A DNA stretch of 64,000 nucleotides from an uncultured Rhodospirillaceae bacterium (GTDB lineage: Bacteria; Pseudomonadota; Alphaproteobacteria; MPNO01; UBA830), in NCBI GenBank assembly GCA_963974055.1, contig CAXBCP010000004.1, positions 69,397 to 133,396 on the forward strand. The letters are read 5' to 3'. The notes under the pieces are model-generated. The model was not told where the DNA came from. It did not search any database and worked only from the letters and a program-made list of their open reading frames with translations. The translations under genes were made by a program, and so were the position numbers. Below, piece after piece: positions 10,214 to 26,465 of this stretch (positions are counted from its first letter, which is position 1; each line of letters begins with the position of its first letter).

Positions 10214-10299
10214 AGAGCAGGGTTTGTGGGGTACAACGTCTGGAACAAGATGCTGCGCCGCAACGCACGAACCGTAGTGACGAATGGCGGCAGAATACA

Positions 10300-11100
10300 A
10301 TGCATGACACTCCCTCCCCATCGTCGGTATCGCTGACTGTCGGCCGGTGGGCTGCATGGGCGCCGGGTGTGACGGACCGGGACGCCTGGCAGGCCTGGGC
10401 GAGGGGAGATGCGGCGATTTCCGGCCCGGTCGACCCGGATGTAAAATTCGTTGCGCCTATGATGCGTCGCCGACTGAGCGGCCTCAGCCGTATGGCGTTC
10501 CGGGTTGCGGCCGACTGCCTGGACGGTGCCGGGGAAAACGGCAATTCCCCGGCTTTCGTGTTCTGTTCGCGCTATGGCGAATATGCCCGCAGCTTCGGCA
10601 TTCTCGGAGGGTTTTCGAGCGGCGATCCCGTCTCCGCAGCCGCTTTCAGCATGTCCGTCCATAACACGGCGACAAGCCTGTATTCCATTGAAACAAAGGA
10701 CCGGTCCGCCGCGACGGCCATGGCCGGCGGCGAAGCGACGCTCGAAACCGGTTTTCTCGAAGCGTGGAGCCTGCTCGTCAACGGCGCGGCCCCGTCGGTC
10801 CTGCTGATTTACCACGACGAATGCCTGCCGGATCTCTATCGCGACCAGGCGACGACCGTCGCCCATGACGCCGCGGTCGCCCTGCTTCTGAAGCTGCCCG
10901 GCAGCGGCGGTGCGGACGATGCAGACGGAATGGGGCTGACGCTCGAATGGTCGTCGAACCGGCCTGCCGCTTCCGGCGCGAAGGCGGCACCCGACCCGGC
11001 GCTCGAAGTACTGAGGCTGCTCATTGACGGGGGCGGTTCGTTTGCGCTCGACGCCGGGCGGCTGGTCTGGACATGGAAGGCCGGGCGTGTCGCGGATTGA
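10300..11100 (+). CDS. Short beta-ketoacyl-synthase-like protein without full active-site set; chain-length-factor-like partner (ApeC-like)
   Basis: 266 aa, KS N-terminal-like region (VFCSRYGEYARS...SMSVHNTATSLYS) but too short for a full KS; first gene of a block collinear with apeC-apeR. Confidence 0.6.
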   Translation: MHDTPSPSSVSLTVGRWAAWAPGVTDRDAWQAWARGDAAISGPVDPDVKFVAPMMRRRLSGLSRMAFRVAADCLDGAGENGNSPAFVFCSRYGEYARSFGILGGFSSGDPVSAAAFSMSVHNTATSLYSIETKDRSAATAMAGGEATLETGFLEAWSLLVNGAAPSVLLIYHDECLPDLYRDQATTVAHDAAVALLLKLPGSGGADDADGMGLTLEWSSNRPAASGAKAAPDPALEVLRLLIDGGGSFALDAGRLVWTWKAGRVAD

Positions 11101-11869
11101 CTACTCCTGGCGGGTATTTGCGACCGGGGCCAGTTTTTCGGTTTTCGGTCTCGGGGCGCTGGTTATTACGCTCACGGCGTTTCCGGCGATTCACCTGTTG
11201 TCCTTCGACCGCCGCCGCGCGCACCGGGGGTGCCAGTATGTCGTTCATCTGTCGTTTCGCGCGTTTATTCGGATGATGAAAACACTTGGCGTTCTCACTT
11301 ACGAATTCAGGGATATCGAGAACCTGTCGCATGAATCCGGTCATCTGATTATTGCCAATCATCCGACCCTGCTCGACGTTGTCTTCATCATTTCGCTGTT
11401 GCCGGTGACTCAATGCGTCGTCAAGAAATCCGCCTGGTCGAATCCGTTTCTCGCCGGGGTGATGTGGGCGACCGGTTATATTCAGAACGACGATCCGATG
11501 GTCCTGATCGAAGACTGCGTTCGAAGTCTCGAAGAGGGCAGCAATCTGGTGATTTTTCCGGAAGCGACCCGCTCGGTGCCGGGGCAGAAGATGCGGCTTA
11601 AACGCGGGGCGGCGTCGGTCATTGCAGCCAGCAGAACGCTGTTCACGCCATTGATAATGACATGCGAACCGTCCACACTTACCAAAGGGAAAAAATGGTT
11701 CGAAATTCCAAGCCAAAAAGCGCATTTCCGGATATCGGTCGGCAAGCCCGTGGATCCGGCGACGCTTTTGACGGACGGGGAACGGCTGAGCAAATCGAAT
11801 CGCCGCATCAACAGCGCGATAGAAGAATTATTTGTCACGGGTATTGAGAAACATGGACGATCTGGCTGA
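11087..11869 (+). CDS. Lysophospholipid/1-acyl-glycerol-3-phosphate-type acyltransferase (LPLAT; ApeD-like)
   Basis: H-X4-D acyltransferase motif HPTLLDVVF, second motif VIFPEATRS; N-terminal TM segment; start proposed at GTG (aa offset 21 of track ORF), overlaps upstream gene. Confidence 0.65.
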   Translation: MSRIDYSWRVFATGASFSVFGLGALVITLTAFPAIHLLSFDRRRAHRGCQYVVHLSFRAFIRMMKTLGVLTYEFRDIENLSHESGHLIIANHPTLLDVVFIISLLPVTQCVVKKSAWSNPFLAGVMWATGYIQNDDPMVLIEDCVRSLEEGSNLVIFPEATRSVPGQKMRLKRGAASVIAASRTLFTPLIMTCEPSTLTKGKKWFEIPSQKAHFRISVGKPVDPATLLTDGERLSKSNRRINSAIEELFVTGIEKHGRSG

Positions 11870-12113
11870 AGAATTGAAAAAACTGTTGATCGAAACCCTG
11901 GACCTGGAAGAAATCGGACCGGAGGATATTGAAACCGAGGCGCCGCTGTTCGGAGACGGCCTCGGGCTCGATTCAATCGATGCGCTGGAACTGGGCGTGG
12001 CGATACAGAAACGCTACGATATCAAGATCGACACCACATCCGAGGATATCGGTAAATGGTTCCACTCCATCGAATCGCTGAGCAAATTTATCGCTGAAGG
12101 CAGACGGTCGTGA
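11853..12113 (+). CDS. Acyl carrier protein 1 (ApeE-like)
   Basis: 86 aa acidic protein, phosphopantetheine site LGLDSIDALEL. Confidence 0.8.
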   Translation: MDDLAEELKKLLIETLDLEEIGPEDIETEAPLFGDGLGLDSIDALELGVAIQKRYDIKIDTTSEDIGKWFHSIESLSKFIAEGRRS

Positions 12114-12376
12114 CCCAGATGGATTCGAACACCACGCGGGAAGAAATTCTGGATCAGTTGAAGGCGATTTTTGTCGAGCAGTTCGATATTGCCGCCGCCG
12201 ATATCGTTCCGGAAGCGCAACTCTATGACGATCTCGATATCGACAGCATCGATGCCGTGGATCTGATGGTCGCCCTGAAGGAAAAATCCGGCAGGAAACT
12301 GGATCCCGAGGTGTTCAAACAGGTGCGCACCGTTGGCGATATCGTTGACGCGGTACACGATCTGCTGACCCGATAG
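12110..12376 (+). CDS. Acyl carrier protein 2 (ApeF-like)
   Basis: 88 aa, DLDIDSIDAVDLMVAL Ser attachment motif; GTGA overlap with previous ACP gene (alternative ATG at 12119). Confidence 0.8.
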   Translation: MTQMDSNTTREEILDQLKAIFVEQFDIAAADIVPEAQLYDDLDIDSIDAVDLMVALKEKSGRKLDPEVFKQVRTVGDIVDAVHDLLTR

Positions 12377-12383
12377 TCCGTTT

Positions 12384-12977
12384 ATGACCGGGGCCAGGAT
12401 CGGATTCGCCGCTGTCGTCATCGCCTATCCGCTGATCGTCTATTTCGGTCTCAAGCATTTCGATGCCCGGCTTGTGGCGGTTCTGCTGATCGGTCTGGCG
12501 TTGTTGCGGCTGTTCATGGTGCGGAAGGCGGATAGTCCTTCTGCGGCGATGCCGCAGGCCCGGCTGGTTATTTTCGCCCTGCTGCTGTTCGGCGTTCTTA
12601 CCCTGGTGTCGGACATTCCCGTGCTTCTGCAATATTACCCCGTGGCGATGAACATTTTTATGTTCACACTGTTTTTCGGCTCGTTGCTCCGCCCGCCCTC
12701 CATTATCGAACGGATCGCCCGGCTGTCGAATCCCGACCTGCCCGAAACCGCGGTCGCCTATACGCGCAAGGTGACCATGGTCTGGTGCGCCTTCTTTGTC
12801 TTCAACGGTTCGATGGCGCTCTACACGACGCTGAGCACCAGCCTGGGTTTCTGGGCCGTCTATAACACCCTGGTATCCTATTCGCTGATGGGATTTCTTT
12901 TCGCGGGGGAATTTCTCGTTCGGCGTATCGTCAAGCGGCGGCATGCTTTGCAGGCCGCCGCTGGGGGGGATAAGTGA
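12384..12977 (+). CDS. Integral membrane protein of unknown function (ApeG-position)
   Basis: 197 aa, 4-5 predicted TM helices; conserved position between ACPs and ligase. Confidence 0.5.
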   Translation: MTGARIGFAAVVIAYPLIVYFGLKHFDARLVAVLLIGLALLRLFMVRKADSPSAAMPQARLVIFALLLFGVLTLVSDIPVLLQYYPVAMNIFMFTLFFGSLLRPPSIIERIARLSNPDLPETAVAYTRKVTMVWCAFFVFNGSMALYTTLSTSLGFWAVYNTLVSYSLMGFLFAGEFLVRRIVKRRHALQAAAGGDK

Positions 12978-14731
12978 TGTCGCCCGCCGTCATCGCGCTC
13001 TCCGGGTTGCTGACCTCCGACGGTGCAGGGGACGATATTGTCGCGACCGGGGCAAACGGCGTCCGAAGCCGCCGCGAATTCATCCGTGACGTCACCGCCC
13101 TGGCAGGGCGGGTGGCGGCCGCCGGCGGCAAACGCTGGCTGATCGCGGACGGCGATGCCTATGCCATCGCGGTCGGTGTATTCGCGGTCCTCCACGCCGG
13201 CGGGCAGGCGGTCCTGCCGGCGAACCTCCAGGCGGGGCATCTGGCGGATGTCGCGTCGACGGCGGATGGCGTGTTGACCGGCGGACCGGGAGGTCCGGCG
13301 GCACCGCGGGCCATGTCCCTGTTCGACCGGCCGGATGCGGATGCGACCGTCGGGCCGCCGCTGGCACCGATCGATGCGGATGCGGCGGAAATCGTCCTGC
13401 ATACGTCGGGCACGACCGGCGCCCCGACATCCATCTGCAAGCCGCTCCGGTGCTTCGAAGCCGAATTGACATCGCAGAGCCGTGTATTCGATCCGGTGCC
13501 CGGCAAAACGGTAATCGCAACGGTGCCGCCCTATCATATCTATGGACTGTTGTTCCGAATTCTGTGGCCGCTCGCCACGAACCGTCCGTTTTCGACGGAT
13601 ACGGTGTCCTATCCGGAAGATCTGGTTTCCGCCGCCGAGGCCGCCCCCGGATGCATGTTCGTCTCCAGCCCGGCATTCCTCAAACGTGCCTTGCAGGTTC
13701 TCGATCTCGACAATCTGCGCCCCTGTCTGGGCCCGGTGTTTTCGTCCGGCGGTCTCCTGCCGCCGCCGGTGGCCGCCGCCTATAACGCAACGCTGACGCA
13801 AGCCGTTGTCGAAGTTTTCGGCAGCACCGAAACGGGCGGTGTCGCTTATCGCTCGGTGTTCGATGCGTCGGCGCCGCCGCATTGGCAGCCGCTGCCGGGT
13901 GTCGAGGTCGCCACCGATCCCGAAACGGAAGTCCTGACCGTGCGGTCGCCATTCATGCCCGACCCGGTGTGGTTTCGCGCCGGCGACCGGGCGCGGATAG
14001 AGCCCGATGGCCGTTTCGTGCTCGGCGGCCGGGCGGACCGTATCGTGAAGGTCGAGGAAGAACGGGTATCGCTGCCCGAACTCGAACAGCGCCTGGCGGA
14101 TAACCTTGCCGTTGCCGCGGCCCGGGTCGTTCTGCTGGCGGACGATGACGGGAAACGCCAGGTTATCGGAGCCGTAATCGAGCCGTCCGACGCCGGCTGG
14201 GCGGTATTGTCTGTCGAGGGCCGGCGGGCCTTACGCACCGGTCTTGTGGATGCATTGCGGCCGCATCTCGCTGCTGTCGTGTTGCCGCGCAAATGGCGTT
14301 TCGTGACGCGCATTCCCGAAGACGACCGCGGCAAGACGAGCGATGCATCCCTTGCCGCCCTGTTCGCCGACAATATGGACCGCCAGATCCTGCCCGCTAT
14401 ACGGTCTCAGGAAACGGCCGGCGACGAAGCGATCTTCCGCATACACTTGCCCCACGATCTGTTTTATTTCGACGGCCATTTCGACGATGCGCCGATTCTG
14501 GCGGGCGTTGTTCAGCTCGACTGGGCCGTCGAATTTGCGCGTCAGCACCTGTCGGTTTCCGGCAGTTTCGAACGTTTCGAAGCGCTTAAATTCTTCAATG
14601 TTCTGATGGCCGGCGACGACGTCACGCTGACCCTCCGCTACGACCGCGATTCGCGGCGGCTGACCTTCGATTACGTCAACGGCGATATCCGGCATTCGTC
14701 GGGCAGGGTCGTCTTCGGGACGGCGTTATGA
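12974..14731 (+). CDS. Aryl-acid adenylating ligase (AMP-binding, ApeH-like) fused to C-terminal FabA/FabZ-type hotdog dehydratase domain (ApeI-like)
   Basis: A3 motif LHTSGTTGAPTSICKP, A5-like GSTETGG; C-terminal about 130 aa FRIHLPHDLFYFDGHFDDAPILAGVVQLDWAVEFARQHL hotdog dehydratase signature. Confidence 0.75.
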   Translation: MMSPAVIALSGLLTSDGAGDDIVATGANGVRSRREFIRDVTALAGRVAAAGGKRWLIADGDAYAIAVGVFAVLHAGGQAVLPANLQAGHLADVASTADGVLTGGPGGPAAPRAMSLFDRPDADATVGPPLAPIDADAAEIVLHTSGTTGAPTSICKPLRCFEAELTSQSRVFDPVPGKTVIATVPPYHIYGLLFRILWPLATNRPFSTDTVSYPEDLVSAAEAAPGCMFVSSPAFLKRALQVLDLDNLRPCLGPVFSSGGLLPPPVAAAYNATLTQAVVEVFGSTETGGVAYRSVFDASAPPHWQPLPGVEVATDPETEVLTVRSPFMPDPVWFRAGDRARIEPDGRFVLGGRADRIVKVEEERVSLPELEQRLADNLAVAAARVVLLADDDGKRQVIGAVIEPSDAGWAVLSVEGRRALRTGLVDALRPHLAAVVLPRKWRFVTRIPEDDRGKTSDASLAALFADNMDRQILPAIRSQETAGDEAIFRIHLPHDLFYFDGHFDDAPILAGVVQLDWAVEFARQHLSVSGSFERFEALKFFNVLMAGDDVTLTLRYDRDSRRLTFDYVNGDIRHSSGRVVFGTAL

Positions 14732-15495
14732 CCTTCCGGCCCTGTATTGTGGTGCCGGTGTTTAATCATGGTGACGGTGCCGCGGCGCTGATGGCGCATT
14801 TCGCGCCGCTTGATTTGCGGGTTTTCTTCGTCAATGACGGCAGTGCCGACGATACGGCGTTGCGGCTCGCCGAAATTGAAAAACAGTACCCGGCGGTGCG
14901 GGTCGTCGGTCATGCGGAAAACCGCGGAAAGGGAGCGGCGGTGGTCAGCGGCCTGCGTGCTGCCCATGACGAGGGGTTTTCCCACGCGCTTCAGATCGAC
15001 GCCGACGGACAGCACGACGCCGGCGATATTCCCCGGTTTCTGGCGCTGGCGGAACGAAATCCGGGGGCCGTGATCGCGGGGCAGCCCGTATTCGATGCCA
15101 GCGTCCCGACCGGCCGTCTGATCGCCCGGTACCTGACCCATGTGTGGATCTGGGTCGAAACCCTGTCCTTCGCGATCCGGGATTCCATGTGCGGATTTCG
15201 CGTCTATCCCCTGGCGCCTGTCATTGGGGTGGCCGACCGGACACGGCTTGGCCGCCGGATGGATTTCGACCCCGAGATTCTGGTCCGGCTTCACTGGGAC
15301 GGTGTGGCGATCATGTCGCTGCCGACGCGCGTGATTTACCCCGAGGGCGGCAGTTCGCATTTTCGGCTGTGGCTCGACAACTGGCTGATCACCCGGATGC
15401 ATATACGGCTGGTTTTCGGCATGCTCTGGCGGGTCCTGCTTTTCCGGACCGGGAAGTTCGGCGGACCGGGTGCGCGCCGGAAAGCCGCCGGATGA
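14728..15495 (+). CDS. Family 2 glycosyltransferase (ApeJ-like)
   Basis: IVVPVFNHG, DDGSAD (DXD-type) motifs; ATGA overlaps on both sides. Confidence 0.75.
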   Translation: MTFRPCIVVPVFNHGDGAAALMAHFAPLDLRVFFVNDGSADDTALRLAEIEKQYPAVRVVGHAENRGKGAAVVSGLRAAHDEGFSHALQIDADGQHDAGDIPRFLALAERNPGAVIAGQPVFDASVPTGRLIARYLTHVWIWVETLSFAIRDSMCGFRVYPLAPVIGVADRTRLGRRMDFDPEILVRLHWDGVAIMSLPTRVIYPEGGSSHFRLWLDNWLITRMHIRLVFGMLWRVLLFRTGKFGGPGARRKAAG

Positions 15496-16520
15496 CCGCT
15501 CCGCAGGATGCCGGGCCGAAATCCGGCCAGGCGCCGCAGGCCGCAACCCACTGGGCGCGGATCGAGGAGCGCGGCATGTATGCCGGTCTCAGCATCATGC
15601 TGGCGACACATCGGTTGTTCGGCCGCCGCGTGTTCGGTCTGCTGCTGTACCCCGTCATCGCATATTTCTTTGTGGCCGGGCGGTCGGCCCGCCGGGCGTC
15701 GATGGCGTTCCTGACGCAGGTTCATCGCCATACCGGGGCGGGTTCTGCCGGCACGGGAATCGGAACGCCGGGCTGGCGCCAGTCTTTCCGCCATTTCATG
15801 GCTTTCGGCGACGCGCTGCTCGACAAGCTCGAAGCCTGGTCGGGCCGGATCGGGGAAGAGAATATCGTCTATCACAACCCGGAAATATTCGAAGCGCTCC
15901 GGCAATCGGGGCGCGGCGGGCTATTGATCGCCTCCCATCTCGGCAATATGGAAGTATGCCGCGCGCTCGGCGAAAAGTCGCTCGGGCTGAAACTCAACGT
16001 TCTGGTCCATACCAAGCACGCCGCCAATTTCAACCGTTTGCTGCGCCGCGTAAGTCCCGATTCGAGCGTTTCGCTGATCCAGACGACCGAGGTCGATCCC
16101 GGCACCGCGATCATGCTTCAGGATCGCATCGCCCGCGGCGAATTTGTCATTATCGTCGGCGACCGGATACCGGTCACGAAATCCGGCCGGACAAGCCGGG
16201 TACCGTTTCTCGGCCGTGTCGCGCCGTTCCCTCAGGGGCCCTATATTCTGGCGTCGCTTTTCGGCTGCCCGGTTCAACTGATTTTCTGTCTCAAGCGCGG
16301 TGGGCGCTATCACATCATTTTCGAGCCCTTCGCAGATGCGATCCGGATCCCCCGCCGCGACCGTAACGCGGCGCTGGCAGACTGGACCGGCCGCTATGTC
16401 AGCCGTCTCGAACACTATTGCACTACCGACCCGTATCAGTGGTTCAATTTTTTTGACTTCTGGGGGCAGGCTGAGACAATGCCGCCCACCGAAAACAAGA
16501 ACCCAGCACCGAAAGGTTGA
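15492..16520 (+). CDS. LpxL/HtrB-family (lipid A biosynthesis-type) acyltransferase
   Basis: Start at aa offset 116 of track ORF (ATGA overlap with GT stop); N-terminal TM, catalytic region LIASHLGNMEV matching the HxxxxE/ SHxGNWE motif of Kdo2-lipid IVA lauroyl/myristoyl acyltransferases. Confidence 0.5.
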   Translation: MTAPQDAGPKSGQAPQAATHWARIEERGMYAGLSIMLATHRLFGRRVFGLLLYPVIAYFFVAGRSARRASMAFLTQVHRHTGAGSAGTGIGTPGWRQSFRHFMAFGDALLDKLEAWSGRIGEENIVYHNPEIFEALRQSGRGGLLIASHLGNMEVCRALGEKSLGLKLNVLVHTKHAANFNRLLRRVSPDSSVSLIQTTEVDPGTAIMLQDRIARGEFVIIVGDRIPVTKSGRTSRVPFLGRVAPFPQGPYILASLFGCPVQLIFCLKRGGRYHIIFEPFADAIRIPRRDRNAALADWTGRYVSRLEHYCTTDPYQWFNFFDFWGQAETMPPTENKNPAPKG

Positions 16521-16550
16521 ACCAATTGCCCGCTCAAAACCACCGTTCCC

Positions 16551-18116
16551 ATGCTCGATAACGTCGCACTCGAAGATCCCGGGCAGGTATCCTTCGGCGA
16601 AACCGCGCTGACGATTGAGGACGTCCTCGCCGTCGCCCATGCGCGGGCGCCCGTTCGATTGAGTCGATCGCCCGGCTATGTCGCGCATATCCGCTCCGGC
16701 GCCGCTTTCCTCGACCGGGTCCTTCAGGAAGACGGCGTTATTTACGGTGTCACCACGGGCTACGGCGATTCCTGCACGGTCGATATACCGCCGGTGCTCT
16801 TCGGGGAACTGCCGCTGCATCTGCTGCGGTTCCATGGCTGCGGTCTGGGGGCGCACCTGTCCCCGGAAATGGCCCGCGCGGTAATGGCGGTGCGGCTGGC
16901 GTCCCTGTCGCGGGGATATTCGGGGGTGAGCTGGGAACTGATCGAACGTCTCGAAATGTTGCTCAATCACGATGTCACTCCCCTGATCCCGGAAGAAGGA
17001 TCCGTAGGGGCGAGCGGCGACCTGACCCCGCTCTCCTACGTGGCAGCGCTCCTCGTCGGTGAACGCGATGCCGTCCATAATGGGGCGGTCCGGTCCGCGC
17101 AGGACATCCTCGCCGATCTCGACCTCGCGCCCCTGCGGCTGAGACCCAAAGAAGGTCTCGCCATCATGAACGGCACGGCGATGATGACGGCGCTGGCCTG
17201 CGATGCCTTCGCCCGGGCGGAATATCTGACGCGGCTGTGCACGCGGCTGACGGCGCTGTCCTCGGTGGCGCTGCAGGGCAACAGCTATCATTTCGACGAA
17301 AAACTGTTCGCGCTGAAACCGCACCCGGGACAGGGGCAGATCGCGGCCTGGCTCCGCGACGATCTCGCCACCGGCGACACGCCGCGCAATTCGGACCGGT
17401 TGCAGGACCGGTATTCGGTTCGATGCGCGCCCCATGTCATCGGGGTCCTGCGCGACAGCCTGCCGTGGATGCGCGGTTTTATCGAAACCGAACTGAACAG
17501 CACGAACGACAACCCTGTCATCGACAGCGTCGACGAACAGGTATTGCATGGCGGCCATTTTTACGGTGGGCACATTGCGTTTGCGATGGACGGGCTGAAA
17601 AACTGCGTAGCGAATCTCGCCGACCTGATGGATCGGCAGCTTGCCCTGCTGGTGGATACCAAGTTCAGCAACGGGCTGCCGAGCAACCTGTCCGGCGCCG
17701 GCGCGGATCGAGCGGCGATAAATCACGGGTTCAAGGCTGTTCAGATCGGCGTTTCCGCCTGGACCGCCGAGGCGCTGAAACAGACGATGCCGGCGAGCGT
17801 GTTTTCCCGGTCGACCGAATCCCATAACCAGGACAAGGTCAGCATGGGCACGATCGCCGCCAGGGATTGCATCCGGGTATTGGAACTGACCGAACAGGTC
17901 GCCGCTGCACATGCGATGGCGTCGGCGCAGGCGGTCCGGCTGCGCCGGCAGATCGATGCCGGAACAAAGTCCCCGCGCGCAGGCGGCGAAGTGGACCGGT
18001 TCGTGGAAGCCGTGTTCGGCGATGTCGAATTTCTGACGGAGGACCGGGCCCTGGAACAGGACCTTCGTGCGATCGTGGATATCATTCGCACCCGTAAATG
18101 GGGACTGTATGACTGA
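16551..18116 (+). CDS. Aromatic amino acid ammonia-lyase (HAL/PAL/TAL family; probable tyrosine or phenylalanine ammonia-lyase given context)
   Basis: 521 aa; MIO-forming triad in GASGDLTPLSYVA; family-wide motifs (GYSGVSWEL, NDNP, HNQDKVSMG). Confidence 0.85.
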   Translation: MLDNVALEDPGQVSFGETALTIEDVLAVAHARAPVRLSRSPGYVAHIRSGAAFLDRVLQEDGVIYGVTTGYGDSCTVDIPPVLFGELPLHLLRFHGCGLGAHLSPEMARAVMAVRLASLSRGYSGVSWELIERLEMLLNHDVTPLIPEEGSVGASGDLTPLSYVAALLVGERDAVHNGAVRSAQDILADLDLAPLRLRPKEGLAIMNGTAMMTALACDAFARAEYLTRLCTRLTALSSVALQGNSYHFDEKLFALKPHPGQGQIAAWLRDDLATGDTPRNSDRLQDRYSVRCAPHVIGVLRDSLPWMRGFIETELNSTNDNPVIDSVDEQVLHGGHFYGGHIAFAMDGLKNCVANLADLMDRQLALLVDTKFSNGLPSNLSGAGADRAAINHGFKAVQIGVSAWTAEALKQTMPASVFSRSTESHNQDKVSMGTIAARDCIRVLELTEQVAAAHAMASAQAVRLRRQIDAGTKSPRAGGEVDRFVEAVFGDVEFLTEDRALEQDLRAIVDIIRTRKWGLYD

Positions 18117-18537
18117 CCCCGGATCGCCATTGCCGAATGCCGAGGTCGTGGTCGAGATACCGTTTCACGACGTCGATATGATGGGTGTGGCGTGGCATGG
18201 GCACTACGCCAAGTATTGCGAGATTGCGCGTTGCGCCCTGCTCGATACGTTTGCCTATAACTACCGCGAAATGGAGGAGTCCGGCTTTTCGTGGCCGGTG
18301 ATCGAATTCAAACTGCGCTACGCGCACCCGGCCAGGATGGGACAGAAAATCCGTGTCCGGGCATCGTTGCGGGAATACGAACTGCACCTGAAGATCGACT
18401 ACCTGATTACCGATGACGCAACCGGAAACCGTCTGAGCAAGGGGCATACGATCATGGTGCCGGTCGATCTGGAAACCGAAAAAATGCTCTTCGGATCGCC
18501 GCCGGTTCTATACGAAAAGCTCGGTATTGCGCCATGA
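18109..18537 (+). CDS. 4HBT/YbgC-type hotdog thioesterase (ApeK-like)
   Basis: 142 aa from internal ATG overlapping lyase stop; EIPFHDVDMMGVAWHGHY motif of 4-hydroxybenzoyl-CoA thioesterase fold. Confidence 0.7.
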   Translation: MTDPGSPLPNAEVVVEIPFHDVDMMGVAWHGHYAKYCEIARCALLDTFAYNYREMEESGFSWPVIEFKLRYAHPARMGQKIRVRASLREYELHLKIDYLITDDATGNRLSKGHTIMVPVDLETEKMLFGSPPVLYEKLGIAP

Positions 18538-19148
18538 GACGGGTGTTTTCGGCGCTGCTTTCCGCGACCTTCGTATTGGCCGCCGGCCAGGTTCCTGCGG
18601 CGGGTATTGCGGATATCGGCAAAGTGCTGACGCCGGCGCCAATGATCTGCGGCGCGTTCACGCAAAGCAAGTCGCTGAAGGCGCTGGCCCGGCCGCTGGT
18701 GTCGCGCGGACGGGTCGTCTTCGTTTCGGGAACGGGCGTGTTGTGGCAGATAACTTCGCCGTTCCCGTCGCGGCTCCTGTTCAAAACAGAGGCGGTCATC
18801 CGCTGGGATGAAAACGACGTTCCGAAACCTACGGGTTTCGCCCAGTTCCCCCAGTTCCGGGCCCTTTCCGACGTTTTTTTTGCGGTTTTTGACGGCGATA
18901 CGAGCCGCCTGGCGACGGTGTTTGACGCGTCCGCCACGGTTGGCCCGGACACCTGGACGCTGACGCTCAAACCGCGTGACAAGGAATTTGCGGCCCGCAT
19001 TTCGGATATCGACGTTTCCGGCGGGCGCTATGTCGAAGAATTGACGATTACCGAGGGACAGGGCGACCGGACGGCGATACGGTTCAGCGGACTGACTGCC
19101 GACGGTTGCGTGCTCAGCACTGCCGAGAAAGGCTACCTTGCATACTAG
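18534..19148 (+). CDS. LolA-like outer-membrane lipoprotein carrier family protein (ApeL-like)
   Basis: Signal peptide MRRVFSALLSATFVLAAGQ; LolA-fold sized (204 aa); ATGA overlap; position before MMPL exporter. Confidence 0.6.
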   Translation: MRRVFSALLSATFVLAAGQVPAAGIADIGKVLTPAPMICGAFTQSKSLKALARPLVSRGRVVFVSGTGVLWQITSPFPSRLLFKTEAVIRWDENDVPKPTGFAQFPQFRALSDVFFAVFDGDTSRLATVFDASATVGPDTWTLTLKPRDKEFAARISDIDVSGGRYVEELTITEGQGDRTAIRFSGLTADGCVLSTAEKGYLAY

Positions 19149-21483
19149 GCTCATCGCGTTGCTTTGGGTTGCTGCGCTTTGCCTGTTGTCGGCATGGCTG
19201 ATTGCGGCACGCGGCCCGGTCGTCAATACCAACCTGATGGCGCTGCTGCCCAGCAGCGATCGCGACCCGGTCGTGCTGGCCGCGGTTGACCGGGTTCAGA
19301 CAAATTTTGCGCGTCATCTTGCGGTCCTTGTGGGCGCCCCGGACTTCGCCGGCGCCAAGGAGGCCGCGGAGCGCGTTGCGACGCGCATGAAGGCGTCCGG
19401 GCACTTCCGGAAATTGCGGGTAAACGACTATCACGACCTTGTCCGTCATTCGGTTGCGTTCTACCTGCCGCAGCGGTTTCACCTGCTCGGCACAAGGGGA
19501 CGCGCACAATTGACGGCGGGCGACCTTGCCGGTTTCGAACGCGACGTTCTCAAACGTTACTACGCGGCGCAATCGACCGTCGGTTCCGGGCTCGTCGATC
19601 GCGACCCGCTCTTGCTTCTGCCCGCTTTTCTGGAGGAAAGAACACAGCAGGCTACCGGCAAACCGGAACTCCGCGAAGGATACCTGACGGTCCGGGAAAA
19701 GGGCCGTATCTACATAGCCCTGATTGGCGAACTGTCCGAGACGCCGTTTTCGAGCTCGGTGCAACAGGCGCTTATGCCGGAATTCGACCGGCTTCGGCGC
19801 GTTCTGCCGGAAACGGTCGCCGACGCGGACCTGCTCATCGCCGGCGTGCTGCCGCATGCAGCGGCTGGGACGCAAAGCGGCATAGACGAAATTTCGACCG
19901 TCGGGCTCGGCTCGATGCTCGCCATCGTGATTCTGCTGATTGTCATGTTCAGGTCCGTCCAGCCGTTTCTGCTCACCCTGTCGACGATCGGTCTCGGCTG
20001 TGTCAGCGGCTTTGCCGCCTGTCTCGCGATATTCGGCGAAGTGCATCTTATTACCCTGATCTTCGGGTCCAGCCTTGTCGGTATATCGGTGGACTATTCG
20101 TTCCATTATTTCTGCGAACGTTTCCGCCTGCAGGACAAATGGTCGCCGGTTGCCGCCCGCCGTCACGTTCTCCCGGGGATTACGCTTGGGCTATTGACCA
20201 GCGGGATCGGTTTCGCCGGTCTTTTTTTCGCACCTTTTCCAGGCATGCAGGGCATGGCGGTGTTTTCCGTCGTCGGTCTCTGCGTTGCCTATGGATGCGT
20301 GATGCTGTGCTATCCGCCGCTGACGCAGCGACCGACGCCGACGCGAACCGTGCTGCTGCTGCGCTGGATGGAACGGTATAGCGGGTTGTGGCGCCGCAAA
20401 TGGACATGGCATGGCTATGCCGTCGCGGGCGGCCTGGTTATTGTCGCTGTCATCGGATGCCTGCGTCTTGCCGCCAGCGACGACGTTCGCCTGCTGCAGA
20501 CGCCAGACGCCGCGGTTATGGAAGAAGAACTTCGGATCCGGAATCTGATCGGGCGCAATCTGGCAAGCCAGTTCCTCCTTGTCGAAGGGCGGGATGCCGC
20601 CGATTTCCTGGTCCGTGAAGAGGCGCTGACCGGAAAGCTGAAACAGCTGCAGTCCGACGGCAGGCTGGAAGGGCATCTTGCGATCTCGGACTTTGTCGCG
20701 TCGCCGCAGCGCCGGGCGGAAAACCGGGCATTGTTGAAGCGTCTGGTTTCGGGCGAGGGCAGTATCCTGGACAGGGTTGCGCAACGGGTCGGGCTGCCCG
20801 ATGTGACACGCGCCGCTTATGTCGCGGCATTCGAGGCCGCTTCGACAGCGCCGGCCGCCGGAATTCCGGAATGGCTCGCCCATCCGGTGTCCGAACCCCA
20901 TCGTCACCTCTGGCTCGGAAAGAGCGCGCGCGGCGTCGTCGGCGCGGTCGGTCTTCGCGGTGTCCACGATATCGGCGCTATCCGCGCGCTGGCGGGGGAC
21001 GATCCCCAGATTCATTTCGTCGACCCGGCAGGCGATATCTCAGACCTGTTCGGCCAGTATCGCCGCCAGACCGTCTGGCTGACCCTTGCGTCCTATGGTC
21101 TGGTGCTGCTTATTCTGATCCTGCGATACGGGTTGTCCGGCGGGCTTCTGGTAATGGCGCCGCCCGCGATCGCGGCCGTCGTCAGCCTCGGGGTCCTGGG
21201 ATTCGTCGGCGAGCCGGTCAGCCTGTTCAATGTCATGGCGCTTCTGCTGGTGCTTGGTATCGGAGTCGATTATTCCCTGTTCTTCCGCGAAACCGGCGCC
21301 GATAACCCGACGACCTTGCTGGCGATTGCGTTGTCGTGCATCACTACGTTGCTCGCCTTCGGCCTGCTGGCGTTTTCTGCGACAACCGCCATCCACGCCT
21401 TCGGTCTGACCGTTCTCGCCGGTATACTGGCGGCATTCCTGCTGTCGCCCATGTCCGGCTGGCGGCGGCCGGCGGGCGGATAG
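19138..21483 (+). CDS. MMPL/RND-superfamily exporter (ApeM-like)
   Basis: 781 aa with two 6-TM bundles each after a large periplasmic loop (GSSLVGISVDYSFHYF ... LGIGVDYSLFF). Confidence 0.8.
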   Translation: MHTRLIALLWVAALCLLSAWLIAARGPVVNTNLMALLPSSDRDPVVLAAVDRVQTNFARHLAVLVGAPDFAGAKEAAERVATRMKASGHFRKLRVNDYHDLVRHSVAFYLPQRFHLLGTRGRAQLTAGDLAGFERDVLKRYYAAQSTVGSGLVDRDPLLLLPAFLEERTQQATGKPELREGYLTVREKGRIYIALIGELSETPFSSSVQQALMPEFDRLRRVLPETVADADLLIAGVLPHAAAGTQSGIDEISTVGLGSMLAIVILLIVMFRSVQPFLLTLSTIGLGCVSGFAACLAIFGEVHLITLIFGSSLVGISVDYSFHYFCERFRLQDKWSPVAARRHVLPGITLGLLTSGIGFAGLFFAPFPGMQGMAVFSVVGLCVAYGCVMLCYPPLTQRPTPTRTVLLLRWMERYSGLWRRKWTWHGYAVAGGLVIVAVIGCLRLAASDDVRLLQTPDAAVMEEELRIRNLIGRNLASQFLLVEGRDAADFLVREEALTGKLKQLQSDGRLEGHLAISDFVASPQRRAENRALLKRLVSGEGSILDRVAQRVGLPDVTRAAYVAAFEAASTAPAAGIPEWLAHPVSEPHRHLWLGKSARGVVGAVGLRGVHDIGAIRALAGDDPQIHFVDPAGDISDLFGQYRRQTVWLTLASYGLVLLILILRYGLSGGLLVMAPPAIAAVVSLGVLGFVGEPVSLFNVMALLLVLGIGVDYSLFFRETGADNPTTLLAIALSCITTLLAFGLLAFSATTAIHAFGLTVLAGILAAFLLSPMSGWRRPAGG

Positions 21484-21487
21484 GCGG

Positions 21488-22093
21488 ATGATGCGCCGGA
21501 TCGTCATTCTTGCCCTGTTTCTTGCCCTGTTTCTTGCCCTATCGGCCTGTGCGGCGGTCGATCCGCGGTCGCCGACGGATACGGACCGCCCGTATTTTCT
21601 GTCTCTGACGCCGGAAAGCCTTGGCCGCAACCTGTCGCTGAGTCAGCTTGTTACCGGGGAATATGACGGAAATACCTATCGCGTGCGCTACGAGGTTGAA
21701 ATCGTCGGCGACCGGTTGACAATTGTCGGCCTGTCGCCGGTCGGCATCACCCTGTTCATTCTGGACCAGATGGGCGATACCATTACCGTCGATACCCGGC
21801 TCCAGGAGGCGGCCGGATTCGATCCGCGCTATACCCTCTTCGATCTGTACCTGACCTACTGGCCTGCAAGCATCGTTCGGGCCGCCCTGGACAAGAACGG
21901 CATGACACTCGACGAAGATCCCCTCAACGGCAACCGGACCGTACGCGGCGCCGACGGCCGGAAGGTTGTAACGGTGACCTATCCGGCCGCCGGAAATGCC
22001 GGTGCCGGCACGGGCGATGTTACGGCGATCGAACATTTCGACCCGCCTTACCGGCTGCGCATTACGCCGATTAAGGCAGCGGACGGCACATGA
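21488..22093 (+). CDS. Lipoprotein, DUF3261-like (ApeN-position)
   Basis: Signal peptide with lipobox LSAC; contains 12-bp tandem repeat encoding LFLALFLAL. Confidence 0.45.
   Translation: MMRRIVILALFLALFLALSACAAVDPRSPTDTDRPYFLSLTPESLGRNLSLSQLVTGEYDGNTYRVRYEVEIVGDRLTIVGLSPVGITLFILDQMGDTITVDTRLQEAAGFDPRYTLFDLYLTYWPASIVRAALDKNGMTLDEDPLNGNRTVRGADGRKVVTVTYPAAGNAGAGTGDVTAIEHFDPPYRLRITPIKAADGT
21511..21540 (+). repeat. 12-bp tandem repeat TGCCCTGTTTCT x2.5 inside signal-peptide coding region
   Basis: Read directly: tgccctgtttct tgccctgtttct tgccct. Confidence 0.7.
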
Positions 22094-23292
22094 CCCGCCG
22101 TGACGTCGTGTATCTGCCGGCACTCGGGATTGTCAGCGCGCTGGGACGTGGCAAAGACGCCGTAAGGCATCATTTGTTCGCGGGCGAACGGCCCGGCGTC
22201 GTATCCCGCAGCGATCTTCTTATCGACGGGTCGCCGGTTTTTGTCGGCGCCGTCGGCGGTGCGCTGCCATCGGTTCCGGAGGACCTGTCGGCGTATGCCA
22301 GCCGGAATCTGGCTCTGACGATCGCCGCCGCCGATGAAATCCGGCCGGACATCGAAGATGCTATTTCCCGCTACGGGAAAGGGCGGATCGCGGTCGTGAT
22401 GGGCAGCAGCACATCGGGAATATCCGAAGGCGAACAGGCGGTTGAACATGCCCGTTCTATCGGTTGCCTGCCGGCGGATTTCGATATGCGAAAACAGGAG
22501 CTGGGCAGCACCGGCGAGGCGCTTGCGCGCTATCTCGGCCTCGAAGGGCCGGCCCTGTCGGTATCGACCGCCTGCAGTTCGGGCGCCCAGGCCCTGGCGA
22601 TGGGCCGCCGGCTTATCCGGTCGGGACTGGTTGACGCGGTCGTCGCCGGCGGCGCCGACAGCCTGTGCCGGCTTACGGTCAACGGCTTTCATGCCCTGTC
22701 CGCCCACAGCGCCGGTATCTGCAATCCATTCAGCCGAAATCGCGACGGGACGATGATGGGCGAAGGGGCGGCCCTGTTTCTGATCGATTCGGCTGAATCC
22801 GAGATTGCGCTACTGGGGTCCGGCGCGACGACCGATGCCCATAGCATGACCGCCCCCGAGCCCGACGGCAGGGGCGTGGAAGAGGCCATCCTGCAGGCAC
22901 TGGCAGATGCCGGTCTGTCGCCGGAGGCCATCGATTATGTCCACCTGCACGGAACCGGCACGCTGCATAACGATCCGGTCGAAAGCAGCGTGGTGTCGCG
23001 GCTGTTCGGCGCGGATATGCCCAGCAGTTCGTCGAAGGGGCAGATCGGTCATACGCTCGGCGCCGCCGGTGCGATGGGTGCCGCCCATTGCTGGCTCGCG
23101 GGCCATAGCGGCAATTCCAGCCGTTTTCTGCCGCCGCACGTATGGGACGGCGCGGCCGAACCGGGCTTGCTGTCGGATTCGCTCGTTTCCGTCGGCACGC
23201 GGCTCGGTTCCGGTGCGAGGGGGCTGTTTCTCAGCAACGCCATCGCCTTTGGCGGCAATAACGTCGTGCTGGTTCTCGGCGGGGCCGCGTGA
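22090..23292 (+). CDS. Beta-ketoacyl-ACP synthase (elongating KS, ApeO-like)
   Basis: Active-site Cys in STACSSGAQAL, His motifs HLHGTGT and IGHTLGAAG; ATGA overlap upstream. Confidence 0.85.
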   Translation: MTRRDVVYLPALGIVSALGRGKDAVRHHLFAGERPGVVSRSDLLIDGSPVFVGAVGGALPSVPEDLSAYASRNLALTIAAADEIRPDIEDAISRYGKGRIAVVMGSSTSGISEGEQAVEHARSIGCLPADFDMRKQELGSTGEALARYLGLEGPALSVSTACSSGAQALAMGRRLIRSGLVDAVVAGGADSLCRLTVNGFHALSAHSAGICNPFSRNRDGTMMGEGAALFLIDSAESEIALLGSGATTDAHSMTAPEPDGRGVEEAILQALADAGLSPEAIDYVHLHGTGTLHNDPVESSVVSRLFGADMPSSSSKGQIGHTLGAAGAMGAAHCWLAGHSGNSSRFLPPHVWDGAAEPGLLSDSLVSVGTRLGSGARGLFLSNAIAFGGNNVVLVLGGAA

Positions 23293-23744
23293 TGTCGCTT
23301 GAATGGCCGCTTCCCGGTTTGCTGCCCCATAGCGGGCCGATGGTGTTGATCGCCGACCCGGCCCGATACGGCGACGGCTGGGCGGAATCGTCGGTGCGGA
23401 TCGGCGAGGACAGTCTGTTTTACAAAATGGGGGCAGGGGTGCCATCATGGGTTGGGGTCGAATACATGGCGCAGACGATTGCTCTTTATGCGGGTATCCA
23501 GGCGCGGAAAGACGGCGATGATATCAGGATCGGACTGCTTATCGGCTCGCGGCGTTATACAGCGATGACCGACTATTTCGCGCTTGGAAACCGGCTTCGA
23601 ATTCGTGTCTCGGAAGTCTGGCAGGACGAACAGATGGCGGTGTTCGATTGCTCGATCGACGCGGACGAACAGGTTGCGGAAGCCCAGATCAATGTCTTTC
23701 GCCCGGTCGATCCGGCACGGTTCCTGCAGGAATCCAGGCCGTGA
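23289..23744 (+). CDS. Hotdog-fold 3-hydroxyacyl-ACP dehydratase (ApeP-like)
   Basis: 151 aa; FabA/FabZ-like hotdog; ATGA overlap with KS. Confidence 0.65.
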   Translation: MMSLEWPLPGLLPHSGPMVLIADPARYGDGWAESSVRIGEDSLFYKMGAGVPSWVGVEYMAQTIALYAGIQARKDGDDIRIGLLIGSRRYTAMTDYFALGNRLRIRVSEVWQDEQMAVFDCSIDADEQVAEAQINVFRPVDPARFLQESRP

Positions 23745-24466
23745 GCCGCCAGGTTCTGGTCACGGGCGCAAGCCGTGGAATAGGGCGGGAAGTCGCCCTG
23801 ACGCTGGGAGGCGCGGGATTTGACGTCGCCGTCCACTACAATGCGCGCAGCGATGCGGCGGAAGACGTCGCCGCTGCCATCCGCAGTGGCGGCGCCGGGG
23901 CCCGGTTGCTGCAATTCGATATCGGGGACCGGGATGCCGCCCGGGAGGCGATCGAGGCCGATATGGATGCACATGGCGCCTATTACGGCGTTGTCTGTAA
24001 CGCTGGTATTGCCCGGGACAGCGCCTTTCCGGCAATGGAACCGGACGCCTGGGACAGCGTCGTCCATACGAACCTGGACGGCTTCTATAATGTCCTGCAT
24101 CCCGTCATTATGCCCATGGTGCGGAAGAAAGCCGGCGGCCGCATTGTCGTGATGTCGTCCGTCTCCGGTGTGATGGGGAACCGGGGCCAGGTGAACTACA
24201 GCGCATCGAAAGGCGGGCTGATCGCAGCGTCCAAGGCGCTCGCGGTCGAACTGGCAACCCGGCGCATCACGGTGAACTGCGTGGCGCCCGGGCTGATCGA
24301 GACCGATATGACCGAAAACGTGGACGCGGAGCGGGTGCTCGATATGATCCCCGCCCGTCGGTTCGGCCGGGCGGAAGAAGTTGCCGGCCTTGTCGGTTAT
24401 CTGTTTTCTGAGAATGCGGAATACATCACCCGGCAGGTGATCTCCGTGAATGGCGGGATGTCATGA
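23741..24466 (+). CDS. 3-oxoacyl-ACP reductase, SDR family (FabG/ApeQ-like)
   Basis: GTG start (aa offset 31 of track ORF, GTGA overlap); TGASRGIGRE cofactor motif, catalytic S...YSASK. Confidence 0.85.
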   Translation: MSRQVLVTGASRGIGREVALTLGGAGFDVAVHYNARSDAAEDVAAAIRSGGAGARLLQFDIGDRDAAREAIEADMDAHGAYYGVVCNAGIARDSAFPAMEPDAWDSVVHTNLDGFYNVLHPVIMPMVRKKAGGRIVVMSSVSGVMGNRGQVNYSASKGGLIAASKALAVELATRRITVNCVAPGLIETDMTENVDAERVLDMIPARRFGRAEEVAGLVGYLFSENAEYITRQVISVNGGMS

Positions 24467-25692
24467 CGAAACGCGTGGTGGTCACCGGGATGGGCGGCCT
24501 GTCGCCGCTCGGCCTGAACTGGGACGAGGTCGAAGGGAATCTTCGTGCGCGCCGTAGTGCCGTCCGGCATATGCCGGAATGGGATATTGTTGAAGACCTC
24601 AATACCCGTCTTGGCGCGACGGTCCCGGAATTTGACCTGCCGGCCCAGTATTCCCGCAAGCGGACCCGCAGCATGGGCCGCATCGGTATCCTGGCGACAC
24701 GCAGCGCCGAATTTGCACTCGAAGACGCCGGGCTGATCGGCGACCCTGTCCTGTCGGACGGCCGCACCGGGGTCGCGTTCGGATCGTCGTCCGGATCGCC
24801 GCCGGCGCTTGCCGATCTCGGCAAGATCCTGCTGACAAACGATATGGGGTCGATGAACGCGAACACTTATATCCAGATCATGCCCCATACGACCGCGGTG
24901 AACGTGTCCGTGTTTTTCGGCATCTGCGGCAGGTTGCTGCCGACATCGAGTGCCTGCACGTCCGGCAGCCTCGCCATCGGCATGGCGTATGAAGCCATCC
25001 GGCACGGCCAGCAGACGGTGATGGTTGCAGGCGGGGCCGAGGAAATTTCGGTCTCTCAGGCTGCCGTGTTCGATACGCTGTTTGCCACCAGTACTCTTAA
25101 CGACACGCCGACCGAAACGCCGAAACCGTTCGACGCAACCCGCGACGGCATGGTGGTGGGCGAAGGGGCGGGAACGCTTGTCCTCGAGGAACTGGAACAC
25201 GCCCAGGCGCGGGGCGCGACGATTCATGCGGAAATCACCGGGTTCGGCACCAATTCCGACGGCAACCATGTCACCCAGCCGACGGCGAAGACGATGGCGG
25301 CGGCAATGCGTGCTGCGCTGGATGTAGAAGGCCTCTCCCCCTCCGAAATCGGTTACGTCAACGCCCATGGCACCGCCACCGATCTTGGCGACGTCGCCGA
25401 ATCCGAGGCCACCCTGGATGCACTGGGTCACGCAGTGCCGATCAGCTCGCTCAAAAGCTATATGGGGCACACGCTGGGGGCGTGCGGCAGTCTTGAAGCC
25501 TGGATGACGGTCGAGATGCTCAAACGGGACTGGTTCGCGCCGACCATCAACCTGGCCGAAATAGACCCCCGCTGCGCCGAACTCGATTATATCGTCGGCG
25601 ACGGGCGCGATATGAACGTCGAATACGCCATGAACAACAATTTCGCGTTTGGCGGCGTGAACACGTCGCTTATCTTCCGCCGTTGGACGTGA
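24463..25692 (+). CDS. Beta-ketoacyl-ACP synthase I/II-type (initiating/elongating KS, ApeR-like)
   Basis: SACTSGSLAIGMAYEAI active Cys, NAHGTAT and MGHTLGACG His motifs, 409 aa. Confidence 0.9.
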   Translation: MTKRVVVTGMGGLSPLGLNWDEVEGNLRARRSAVRHMPEWDIVEDLNTRLGATVPEFDLPAQYSRKRTRSMGRIGILATRSAEFALEDAGLIGDPVLSDGRTGVAFGSSSGSPPALADLGKILLTNDMGSMNANTYIQIMPHTTAVNVSVFFGICGRLLPTSSACTSGSLAIGMAYEAIRHGQQTVMVAGGAEEISVSQAAVFDTLFATSTLNDTPTETPKPFDATRDGMVVGEGAGTLVLEELEHAQARGATIHAEITGFGTNSDGNHVTQPTAKTMAAAMRAALDVEGLSPSEIGYVNAHGTATDLGDVAESEATLDALGHAVPISSLKSYMGHTLGACGSLEAWMTVEMLKRDWFAPTINLAEIDPRCAELDYIVGDGRDMNVEYAMNNNFAFGGVNTSLIFRRWT

Positions 25693-26465
25693 CGCCGGCG
25701 CCCGACGCGCCGCTGCTGCCCGCTTCCGGGGAAATACATCTCTGGTCTTTGCCTGCCGACCCCGCGTGGCGCGATGAATTCCGAGCCGCGGGACGCCGCC
25801 TGCTTTCGTTAGCTGAAACGGATCGCCTGGCCGGGATGAAACGACCGGGACCGGCGGCGCGGTTTCTCACCGGGCGGATTCTGCTGCGGACGGTTCTGGC
25901 CCGTTACCTGTCTCAGGATCCTGCTGCGATCGGGGTGGCGCTCAACGCTGCCGGGAAGCCGACGCTTGGCGCCGGAGCCGGTCACCGGCCTGCGTTCAGC
26001 CTGTCCCATGCAGGCGAAGAGACGGTTCTGGCGGTCGCCCGCGACGGGGATATCGGGGTCGATATAGAATCGACGGACAGGGCGGCGGCGGTTGACCGGA
26101 TTTCACGCCGTTTTTTCCCGGAGGCCGAGTGCCGGTATCTCGACCGGTGCGGCAGCGACCGGCCGGAGAAAGCGCTGACGCTCTGGACCCTCAAGGAAGC
26201 GATCATCAAAGCACGGGGAGATACCGTCTGGGAGGGGCTTGCCGGGGTTTCTCTGACGATCGATGGGCCGCGACTGGCCTGGAACAATCCCCCGCCGGGT
26301 GGCGACGGGTGGAAACTGGCGGCCGGGCCTTTGGGGATCAGGCACATTCTCGCCGTTGCGCACCGACGGCCGGCAGGCCGCGGACATCCTCCCGTTTTCC
26401 GGCATTACGACGCCGCCGGAACGCCCCGGGCCGAATCCTGTTTTATGCCCGTCTATTCGACGTAA
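25683..26465 (+). CDS. 4'-phosphopantetheinyl transferase (Sfp/EntD type)
   Basis: GVDIES motif and WTLKEAIIKARG motif. Confidence 0.75.
   Translation: MDVTPAPDAPLLPASGEIHLWSLPADPAWRDEFRAAGRRLLSLAETDRLAGMKRPGPAARFLTGRILLRTVLARYLSQDPAAIGVALNAAGKPTLGAGAGHRPAFSLSHAGEETVLAVARDGDIGVDIESTDRAAAVDRISRRFFPEAECRYLDRCGSDRPEKALTLWTLKEAIIKARGDTVWEGLAGVSLTIDGPRLAWNNPPPGGDGWKLAAGPLGIRHILAVAHRRPAGRGHPPVFRHYDAAGTPRAESCFMPVYST

Follow-up and report, generated by a model that had tools for sequence, protein, structure and literature searches.

Aryl polyenes (APEs), yellow membrane pigments made as carboxylic acids and carried on an outer-membrane lipid, are the products of the most widespread bacterial biosynthetic cluster family. 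In characterised homologs, ApeH adenylates an aryl acid and loads it onto ApeE without CoA, ApeO/ApeC, ApeQ, and ApeI/ApeP make the polyene, ApeD and ApeJ join it to a glycerophospholipid/GalNAc anchor, and ApeL, ApeM, and ApeN serve in its export (PMC8253772; bioRxiv 10.1101/2020.12.19.423268). Among the clusters closest to the locus described here are two types: that of Escherichia coli CFT073 (APE_Ec; also the APE cluster of Xenorhabdus doucetiae), whose starter is UbiC-derived 4-hydroxybenzoate (PMC8253772), and that of Vibrio fischeri ES114 (APE_Vf), which according to a published genome paper includes an ammonia-lyase gene (PMC5851621). The locus lies at positions 10300-26465 of a 64,000-nucleotide stretch (hereafter the window) of contig CAXBCP010000004.1 from an uncultured Rhodospirillaceae bacterium, and adds a marine alphaproteobacterial example to this family and nothing more. 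It very probably serves to make, attach, and export an APE lipid, and has the V. fischeri-type architecture that includes a lyase.

The window proteins from ApeC to ApeR match both the annotated E. coli ape cluster (locus L006) and a Vibrio vulnificus locus (L001) in identical order, with 27-61% identity by tblastn, and each E. coli ape gene from C to R has its window counterpart in the same order at 27-59% identity, gene for gene. A chain length factor/ketosynthase (CLF/KS) pair with a second KS, two acyl carrier proteins (ACPs) with a ligase, a dehydratase (DH) pair with a ketoreductase (KR), and an attachment and export set are all present, and the cluster is a member of the APE family. The ape functions C to R are complete and in ape order, accompanied by a phosphopantetheinyl transferase (PPTase) inside the operon, at a position matched by acpT after apeR in E. 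coli, and by a convergent apeA-like gene. An earlier annotation made from the letters of the window (the first-pass annotation) had proposed a type II polyketide synthase cluster collinear with apeC to apeR, and the tblastn order bears this out, the cluster being of ape type with type II polyketide synthase/fatty acid synthase (FAS)-like machinery. It had also considered that the KS, CLF, and ACP proteins might group with primary FAS; this possibility is removed, since the KS, ACP, and KR proteins score above the NCBIfam cut-offs of APE-associated models (PRK09116, PRK09185, PRK09184, PRK05350, FabG2), with ApeR scoring 359.9 bits against the fabF model, under its cut-off of 493.75. The active-site motifs are in place, with Cys-His-His in both KS proteins, the DS serine in both ACPs, and Ser/Tyr/Lys in the KR. 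The nearest whole-cluster matches are metagenome-assembled genomes (MAGs) of Alphaproteobacteria (L007 and L008; 36-80% identity per protein), and the best matches, from Rhodospirillales and other alphaproteobacterial MAGs (lyase identity 74-77%), narrow the earlier "alpha/beta-proteobacterial" label to its first half, the genome not being betaproteobacterial.

In E. coli apeJ is followed directly by apeK, whereas in Vibrio and in the window a lyase gene lies between them (16551-18116 in the window). The E. coli cluster also differs from that of the window in having the apeB methyltransferase. The Vibrionaceae clusters of APE_Vf type (V. fischeri ES114, V. vulnificus, and the Aliivibrio loci L054 and L062) share with the window the order from CLF to ApeR, the LolA, MMPL, and DUF3261 export set, and a lyase of the same clade (61-64% identity) between the GT2 glycosyltransferase/acyltransferase and the thioesterase. 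They differ in that the window has a fused ApeH-ApeI and a split GT2/acyltransferase, both states being common in other relatives, lacks the apeB-type methyltransferase and the halogenase dependent on flavin adenine dinucleotide (FAD), carries apeA downstream and convergent rather than upstream and divergent, and holds its PPTase inside the operon. The 558-residue E. coli ApeJ corresponds in its N-terminal half to the window GT2 and in its C-terminal half to the window acyltransferase, and the two are likewise fused in Vibrio (PF03279). Among loci related to the window, ApeH-ApeI is fused in 30/77 and the GT2/acyltransferase is split in 41/78, and these two features were accordingly rejected as distinguishing novelties.

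The lyase-bearing layout is far from rare. Homologs of the window lyase at 64% identity or more occur in Vibrio, Aliikangiella, Dongshaea, and many metagenomes, and a scan across GTDB species, each represented by one genome, with two clade-specific peptides, HGGHFYGG and AWTAEALK, matched at least 600 stretches and confirmed the clade in at least 590 species-representative genomes from the Alpha-, Beta-, and Gammaproteobacteria. The window proteins were mapped by tblastn to the 80 best loci, i.e. those closest to the query lyase, which come from Alphaproteobacteria (a Rhodospirillales MAG, a "Rhizobium sp." MAG, Parvibaculaceae, and Tepidicaulis), Gammaproteobacteria (Vibrio, Aliivibrio, Photobacterium, Shewanella, Pseudoalteromonas, Stenotrophomonas, Kangiella, and Cellvibrionaceae), and Betaproteobacteria (Herbaspirillum, Collimonas, Iodobacter, and Chitinolyticbacter). 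All but one of these are collinear with the window (79/80), and the apeJ-lyase-apeK adjacency is found in 77, V. vulnificus and Aliivibrio among these, the two gaps having medians of 44 and 39 nt. A very large subgroup of APE clusters has a lyase between apeJ and apeK as its standard layout, and the lyase clade is a fixed component of this type of cluster. The third codon position G+C content of the window lyase gene is the same as that of its neighbours. In Photobacterium chitinilyticum (L015, 8625-11551) a lyase of the same clade (62% identity) has only a CLF and one ACP beside it, with the other ape genes absent from the 21.5 kb locus, which is apparently a remnant or rearranged cluster. 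The record titled Nocardiopsis yanglingensis strain A18 Scaffold6 (L068) carries a complete APE cluster of Gram-negative type, matching the Stenotrophomonas indicatrix and S. lactitubi loci at 85-87% DNA identity over 14-15 kb, and is probably a contaminant or mislabelled.

The first-pass annotation had seen in this locus an uncommon hybrid, in which flexirubin starter logic is grafted onto ape machinery to give an unusual product. The presence of a lyase that E. coli lacks speaks for such a reading, but we regard it as highly unlikely given the species and locus counts above and the ammonia-lyase of the V. fischeri ES114 cluster, and the cluster is an ordinary member of a known, very widespread family. 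Coumarate as the starter would moreover yield the skeleton that 4-hydroxybenzoate gives after one extension. The flexirubin pathway of Bacteroidetes (Chitinophaga pinensis, with the tyrosine ammonia-lyase FlxA and the 4-coumarate-CoA ligase FlxY) does share with the window the logic of a cluster-encoded lyase dependent on 4-methylideneimidazole-5-one (MIO) that supplies an aryl-acrylate starter, and FlxA and the window lyase both combine a motif 1 His like that of histidine ammonia-lyases (HALs) with a motif 2 like that of tyrosine and phenylalanine ammonia-lyases (TALs and PALs) (PMC3992019). However, the window proteins score below the thresholds set for flexirubin models (FlxA 314/700, FlxB 273/340, LolA2_flexi 52/125), starter activation in the window is predicted to proceed straight to the ACP via the ApeH homolog rather than through CoA, and no dialkylresorcinol genes of the DarA/DarB families occur among the ~50 open reading frames (ORFs) of the window scanned with Pfam, though such genes could lie elsewhere in the genome. 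The label "flexirubin-like" is therefore not supported, the logic being analogous and not orthologous.

A further comparison is with the xanthomonadins, which are often brominated. The xanthomonadin and arcuflavin clusters of Xanthomonas and Azoarcus BH72 share type II aryl polyene machinery with the window, together with glycosyltransferase, LolA, acyltransferase, and exporter genes, but make 3- or 4-hydroxybenzoate with a chorismate-utilising enzyme of XanB2 type (PMC3949708). Neither such an enzyme nor a halogenase is found among the window ORFs scanned, the former search also covering the UbiC type. A literature search for xanthomonadin with ammonia-lyase gave nothing useful.

Judged by its residues, the window lyase is an intact MIO enzyme of superfamily PF00221, as the first-pass annotation had noted from the ASG triad. 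The triad is formed by Ala154-Ser155-Gly156, and the catalytic residues Y65, N207, Q285, Y288, R291, and F337 align with Y53, N195, Q277, Y280, R283, and F329 of Pseudomonas putida HAL (PpHAL), the reference sequences having been verified against PDB entries. The lyase scores 400.2 bits against the hutH equivalog TIGR01225 (cut-off 539.15), 314.3 bits against the FlxA equivalog NF053541 (cut-off 700), and 421.8 bits against the BagA model (cut-off 1000), with the FlxA score lower than those of the BagA (421.8) and HAL (406, 400) models. Because it falls under all three cut-offs, and because identity is 64-77% within its clade compared with 35-39% to the solved HAL, PAL, TAL, and tyrosine aminomutase (TAM) structures, the lyase is placed on a separate branch, as neither a HAL nor an ortholog of FlxA.

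This placement bears on whether the enzyme could be a genuine, urocanate-forming HAL that merely sits inside the cluster, or an MIO aminomutase making a β-amino acid. His95 aligns with His83 of HAL, the hutH model reaches 400 bits, and the top PDB matches are, by a small margin, tyrosine aminomutases. The hutH score nevertheless stays below the equivalog cut-off, the HAL-specific Glu414 is replaced by Gln427, a residue invariant in the clade, there are no hut genes adjacent, and no APE is known to contain nitrogen. A HAL or aminomutase is thus very improbable, and the earlier statement that the lyase is no genuine HAL stands. The nearest solved structure was rejected as a guide to substrate, since TAM, HAL, PAL, and TAL are about equally distant (215-240 bits, 35-39% identity).

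The residues of the selectivity switch are Phe94-His95 in the window lyase, compared with Ser-His in HAL, Phe-Leu in PAL, His-Leu (His89-Leu90) in the Rhodobacter sphaeroides TAL (RsTAL), and Ser-His in the tyrosine aminomutase SgTAM, and the pair thus fits none of the textbook His-Leu, Phe-Leu, and Ser-His rules. Across the clade His95 and Gln427 do not vary, and Phe94 hardly does. FlxA, with its HAL-like motif 1 His and TAL/PAL-like motif 2, is nonetheless a proven tyrosine ammonia-lyase that prefers tyrosine 1010-fold to phenylalanine (PMC3992019), and SgTAM has the same His and Gln combination as the window lyase. Because FlxA and SgTAM share this combination, tyrosine is probably the substrate of the window lyase and the most likely candidate for that role.

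Phenylalanine is the main alternative, owing to Phe94, which occupies switch position A as in the Phe-Leu pair of Anabaena variabilis PAL (AvPAL); Ile399 and Lys395 also match AvPAL at their columns. A PAL would deliver cinnamate, and with no hydroxylase, methyltransferase, or halogenase in the cluster a phenyl polyene lacking the hydroxyl group would result. We consider this unlikely, with switch position B being an invariant His rather than Leu, and with the APE of the lyase-bearing V. fischeri cluster presumably carrying a 4-hydroxyphenyl head group. The occurrence of the His and Gln combination in the tyrosine-specific FlxA (PMC3992019) and in SgTAM also argues against it.

The most likely route to the starter would run from tyrosine to 4-coumarate and from there to loading by ApeH. 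The A. baumannii ApeH, itself an ApeH-ApeI fusion (described in PMC8041823), loads ApeE in vitro with both p-hydroxybenzoate and p-coumarate (PMC12624758), so that priming with 4-coumarate made by a lyase is chemically feasible. The 4-hydroxybenzoate route itself passes through 4-coumaroyl-ACP as the intermediate of its first round, and the lyase would therefore act in this cluster as an alternative on-ramp to the ordinary skeleton rather than as the source of a new scaffold. The proposal of the first-pass annotation, a starter derived from tyrosine via 4-coumarate, is thus retained as the most plausible role of the lyase, but implies no new product, an ordinary 4-hydroxyphenyl polyene skeleton being expected.

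In the proposed pathway, the PPTase would first convert both ACPs to their holo forms, and the lyase would deaminate L-tyrosine to 4-coumarate. The ApeH domain would then adenylate 4-coumarate, or 4-hydroxybenzoate if available, and load it onto ApeE with no CoA intermediate, after which iterative extension with malonyl-ACP by ApeO/ApeC, ApeQ, and ApeI/ApeP, together with ApeR, would yield a 4-hydroxyphenyl polyenoyl-ACP. Assembly of the glycolipid anchor and attachment of the chromophore are assigned provisionally to ApeD, the GT2, and the LpxL-like acyltransferase, with ApeK helping in release, and the lipid would reach the outer membrane via ApeG, ApeL, ApeM, ApeN, and ApeA. No enoyl reductase domain was detected by Pfam or NCBIfam in any of the 18 cluster genes, and a conjugated polyene is therefore expected. 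As no apeB-type methyltransferase or FAD halogenase homolog was found within the window, a plain 4-hydroxyphenyl head group is predicted.

Tailoring genes vary among the relatives. A FAD-dependent halogenase-like gene is present in 63/80 of the related lyase-bearing clusters and an apeB-type methyltransferase in 20/80. The halogenase-like gene is placed between ApeM and either ApeN or ApeO in L008, L009, L010, L014, L046, and L077, where coordinates were checked (at ~15000-16400 in L008-L010, L014, and others), and upstream and divergent in Vibrio. The window represents a tailoring-free variant, with no halogenase at its ApeM-ApeN junction (21483-21491) and no apeB.

Several points weigh against a tyrosine-derived starter. 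Switch position A is Phe, as in PALs, and not His, as in RsTAL. The substrate is deduced from three or four residues, and the literature searched (aryl polyene with ammonia-lyase, and coumaric) yielded no biochemically characterised member of the lyase clade. The top NCBIfam match of the ligase, "4-coumarate-CoA ligase" (89.8 bits), was rejected as evidence for coumarate, because the 4-hydroxybenzoate-loading ApeH of E. coli has the same top match at 83.8 bits. The organism is uncultured, and its product, starter, and pigmentation are predicted from sequence.

A different account keeps chorismate-derived 4-hydroxybenzoate as the primer, as in E. coli, and makes the lyase auxiliary or redundant, either as a second on-ramp when 4-hydroxybenzoate is limiting or in a role unrelated to priming. 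The characterised ApeH enzymes load 4-hydroxybenzoate (PMC8253772, PMC12624758), the window ApeH is their homolog (32% identity to E. coli apeH), and the E. coli cluster, apart from its lack of a lyase, has the same layout. In contrast, no other protein of the cluster is as conserved as the lyase, which has 64% identity to Vibrio compared with 30-61% for the others, and its position is fixed in 77 of the 80 loci over three proteobacterial classes, which argues for a core function; in vitro, an ApeH can load 4-coumarate (PMC12624758). On balance, priming by 4-hydroxybenzoate with an auxiliary lyase seems improbable. That the lyase tops conservation across classes is in itself unexpected for an accessory enzyme of starter supply.

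Tyrosine-derived 4-coumarate remains our preferred starter, and the E. coli and Xenorhabdus model, in which 4-hydroxybenzoate is loaded by ApeH, may not fit the lyase-bearing clusters of at least 590 species. It is also possible, if rather doubtful, that the Phe-His/Gln clade is an uncharacterised specificity class with a product other than 4-coumarate (e.g. cinnamate, leading to a non-hydroxylated phenyl polyene), or that the lyase frees APE priming from chorismate-derived 4-hydroxybenzoate by entry one extension round later. Either outcome, if true, would mean that the standard model of a 4-hydroxybenzoate starter needs revision in a large share of APE clusters. What this clade acts on, and in what role, is a general question across hundreds of species, bearing on the priming of a large fraction of aryl polyenes.

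The operon consists of 18 co-directional genes on the + strand with 17 junctions, their families called with Pfam and NCBIfam and their starts taken from the gene calls of Tara Oceans/ENA contigs 99.4-99.8% identical to the window, whose contig recurs among the Tara Oceans assemblies. Exact 4-nt overlaps occur at 8/17 junctions, two further junctions overlap by 1 or 4 nt depending on the choice of start codon, and the largest gap is at most 30 nt. By family calls and by the gene calls of these near-identical contigs, every gene named in the first-pass annotation is present at the position and on the strand it gave, and its gene order is right for those genes, but it omitted the LpxL-like acyltransferase (15492-16520) and the PPTase (25689-26465).

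The ApeC-like CLF (10300-11100; 266 aa, with the KS N-terminal domain only, PF13723, 4.9e-54) is collinear with and 29% identical to the E. coli "beta-ketoacyl synthase chain length factor", and is followed by the ApeD lysophospholipid acyltransferase (LPLAT; 11087-11869; PF01553, 37% identity to E. coli apeD). The starter acyl carrier protein ApeE (11853-12113) carries its serine in GLDSID and scores 91.2 bits against NF006617 (cut-off 70), with 54% identity to E. coli apeE, and the second carrier protein ApeF (12110-12376) carries its serine in DIDSID and scores 113.7 bits against NF003757 (cut-off 65), with 51% identity to E. coli apeF. ApeG (12384-12977), a small membrane protein with hydrophobic segments and 42% identity to E. 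coli apeG, gives only weak IspA-like matches in Pfam. The aryl-acid:ACP ligase ApeH is fused to the ApeI dehydratase (12977-14731; PF00501 and the ApeI-like PF22818), matching E. coli apeH and then apeI (the latter at 40%).

The GT2 glycosyltransferase (14728-15495; PF00535) is 51% identical to residues 3-244 of E. coli ApeJ, and the LpxL-like lipid acyltransferase encoded separately after it (15492-16520) is 39% identical to residues 245-558, with weak NCBIfam LpxL/LPLAT matches. The MIO-dependent aromatic amino-acid ammonia-lyase, a predicted tyrosine ammonia-lyase (PF00221, 1.3e-159), precedes the hotdog thioesterase ApeK (18130-18537; PF13279, 50-51% identity to E. coli apeK), the LolA-like periplasmic carrier ApeL (18534-19148; PF03548 and PF19574, with a hydrophobic N-terminal segment at residues 4-22), the MMPL/RND-type exporter ApeM (19138-21483; PF03176, 12 hydrophobic segments, 30% identity to E. 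coli apeM), and the LolB-like DUF3261 lipoprotein ApeN (21491-22093; PF11659, 2.4e-21, lipobox LSAC).

The ketosynthase ApeO (22090-23292) scores 426.8 bits against NF006618 (cut-off 407) and contains the motifs STACSSG, HLHGTGT, and GHTLGAAG. It is followed by the dehydratase ApeP (23292-23744; ApeP-like PF22817, 8.7e-18), the FabG2 ketoreductase ApeQ (23741-24466; TIGR01831 at 370.7 bits, cut-off 338.85), and the second, FabB-like ketosynthase ApeR (24463-25692; NF006587 at 675.9 bits, cut-off 470), with ApeQ and ApeR each 59% identical to their E. coli counterparts. The final gene encodes a PPTase of Sfp/AcpT type (PF01648) that is 34% identical to E. coli acpT, with NCBIfam HetI and AcpT matches under cut-off.

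Because the convergent apeA homolog lies at 26471-26854 on the - strand, the cluster reaches slightly past 26465, and the earlier extent of 10300-26465 is correct for the operon but stops short of this gene. The small lipoprotein it encodes (lipobox LLAGC) is 35% identical to E. coli apeA and 33% identical to the product of a 129-aa V. vulnificus gene; it is a member of the cluster, with a gene in the equivalent position in the alphaproteobacterial relatives L007-L010. At the other end, no sigma-70 consensus match was returned when the 152 nt preceding apeC were scanned. This intergenic region contains an extended -10-like element at 10205-10222, TGTTATACT, which is not a full sigma-70 match in that scan.

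Further upstream, at 6841-10147 on the + strand, are three co-directional genes with no confident family match and absent from the 80 related loci, encoding an 85-aa membrane peptide, a 463-aa soluble protein with a class I S-adenosylmethionine-methyltransferase motif, and a 550-aa protein with five N-terminal transmembrane segments and a weak domain of sulfatase/alkaline-phosphatase type. The latter two (7107-10147) were considered as cluster members and rejected on account of that absence. Directly beside the other end of the cluster, next to apeA, is a gene for the lipid A 3-O-deacylase PagL (26931-27422, - strand). A PagL gene 58% identical flanks the cluster in the alphaproteobacterial MAG L008 (1683-2102) and in 0 of the other 79 loci; this neighbour is of possible interest in view of the suggestion that the APE anchor resembles lipid A.

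Elsewhere the window holds genes unrelated to the cluster, among them a TonB-dependent receptor with a periplasmic-binding-protein/FecCD-type ABC uptake system, hydantoinase A/B genes, and TRAP transporters. It also includes, at 40776-48957, a ring-opening amidohydrolase of the AtzD/TrzD family (46605-47723; of cyanuric acid hydrolase or barbiturase type) together with two amidohydrolases, an isochorismatase-like protein, an M20 peptidase, and a LysR regulator, which is likely an N-heterocycle catabolic locus.

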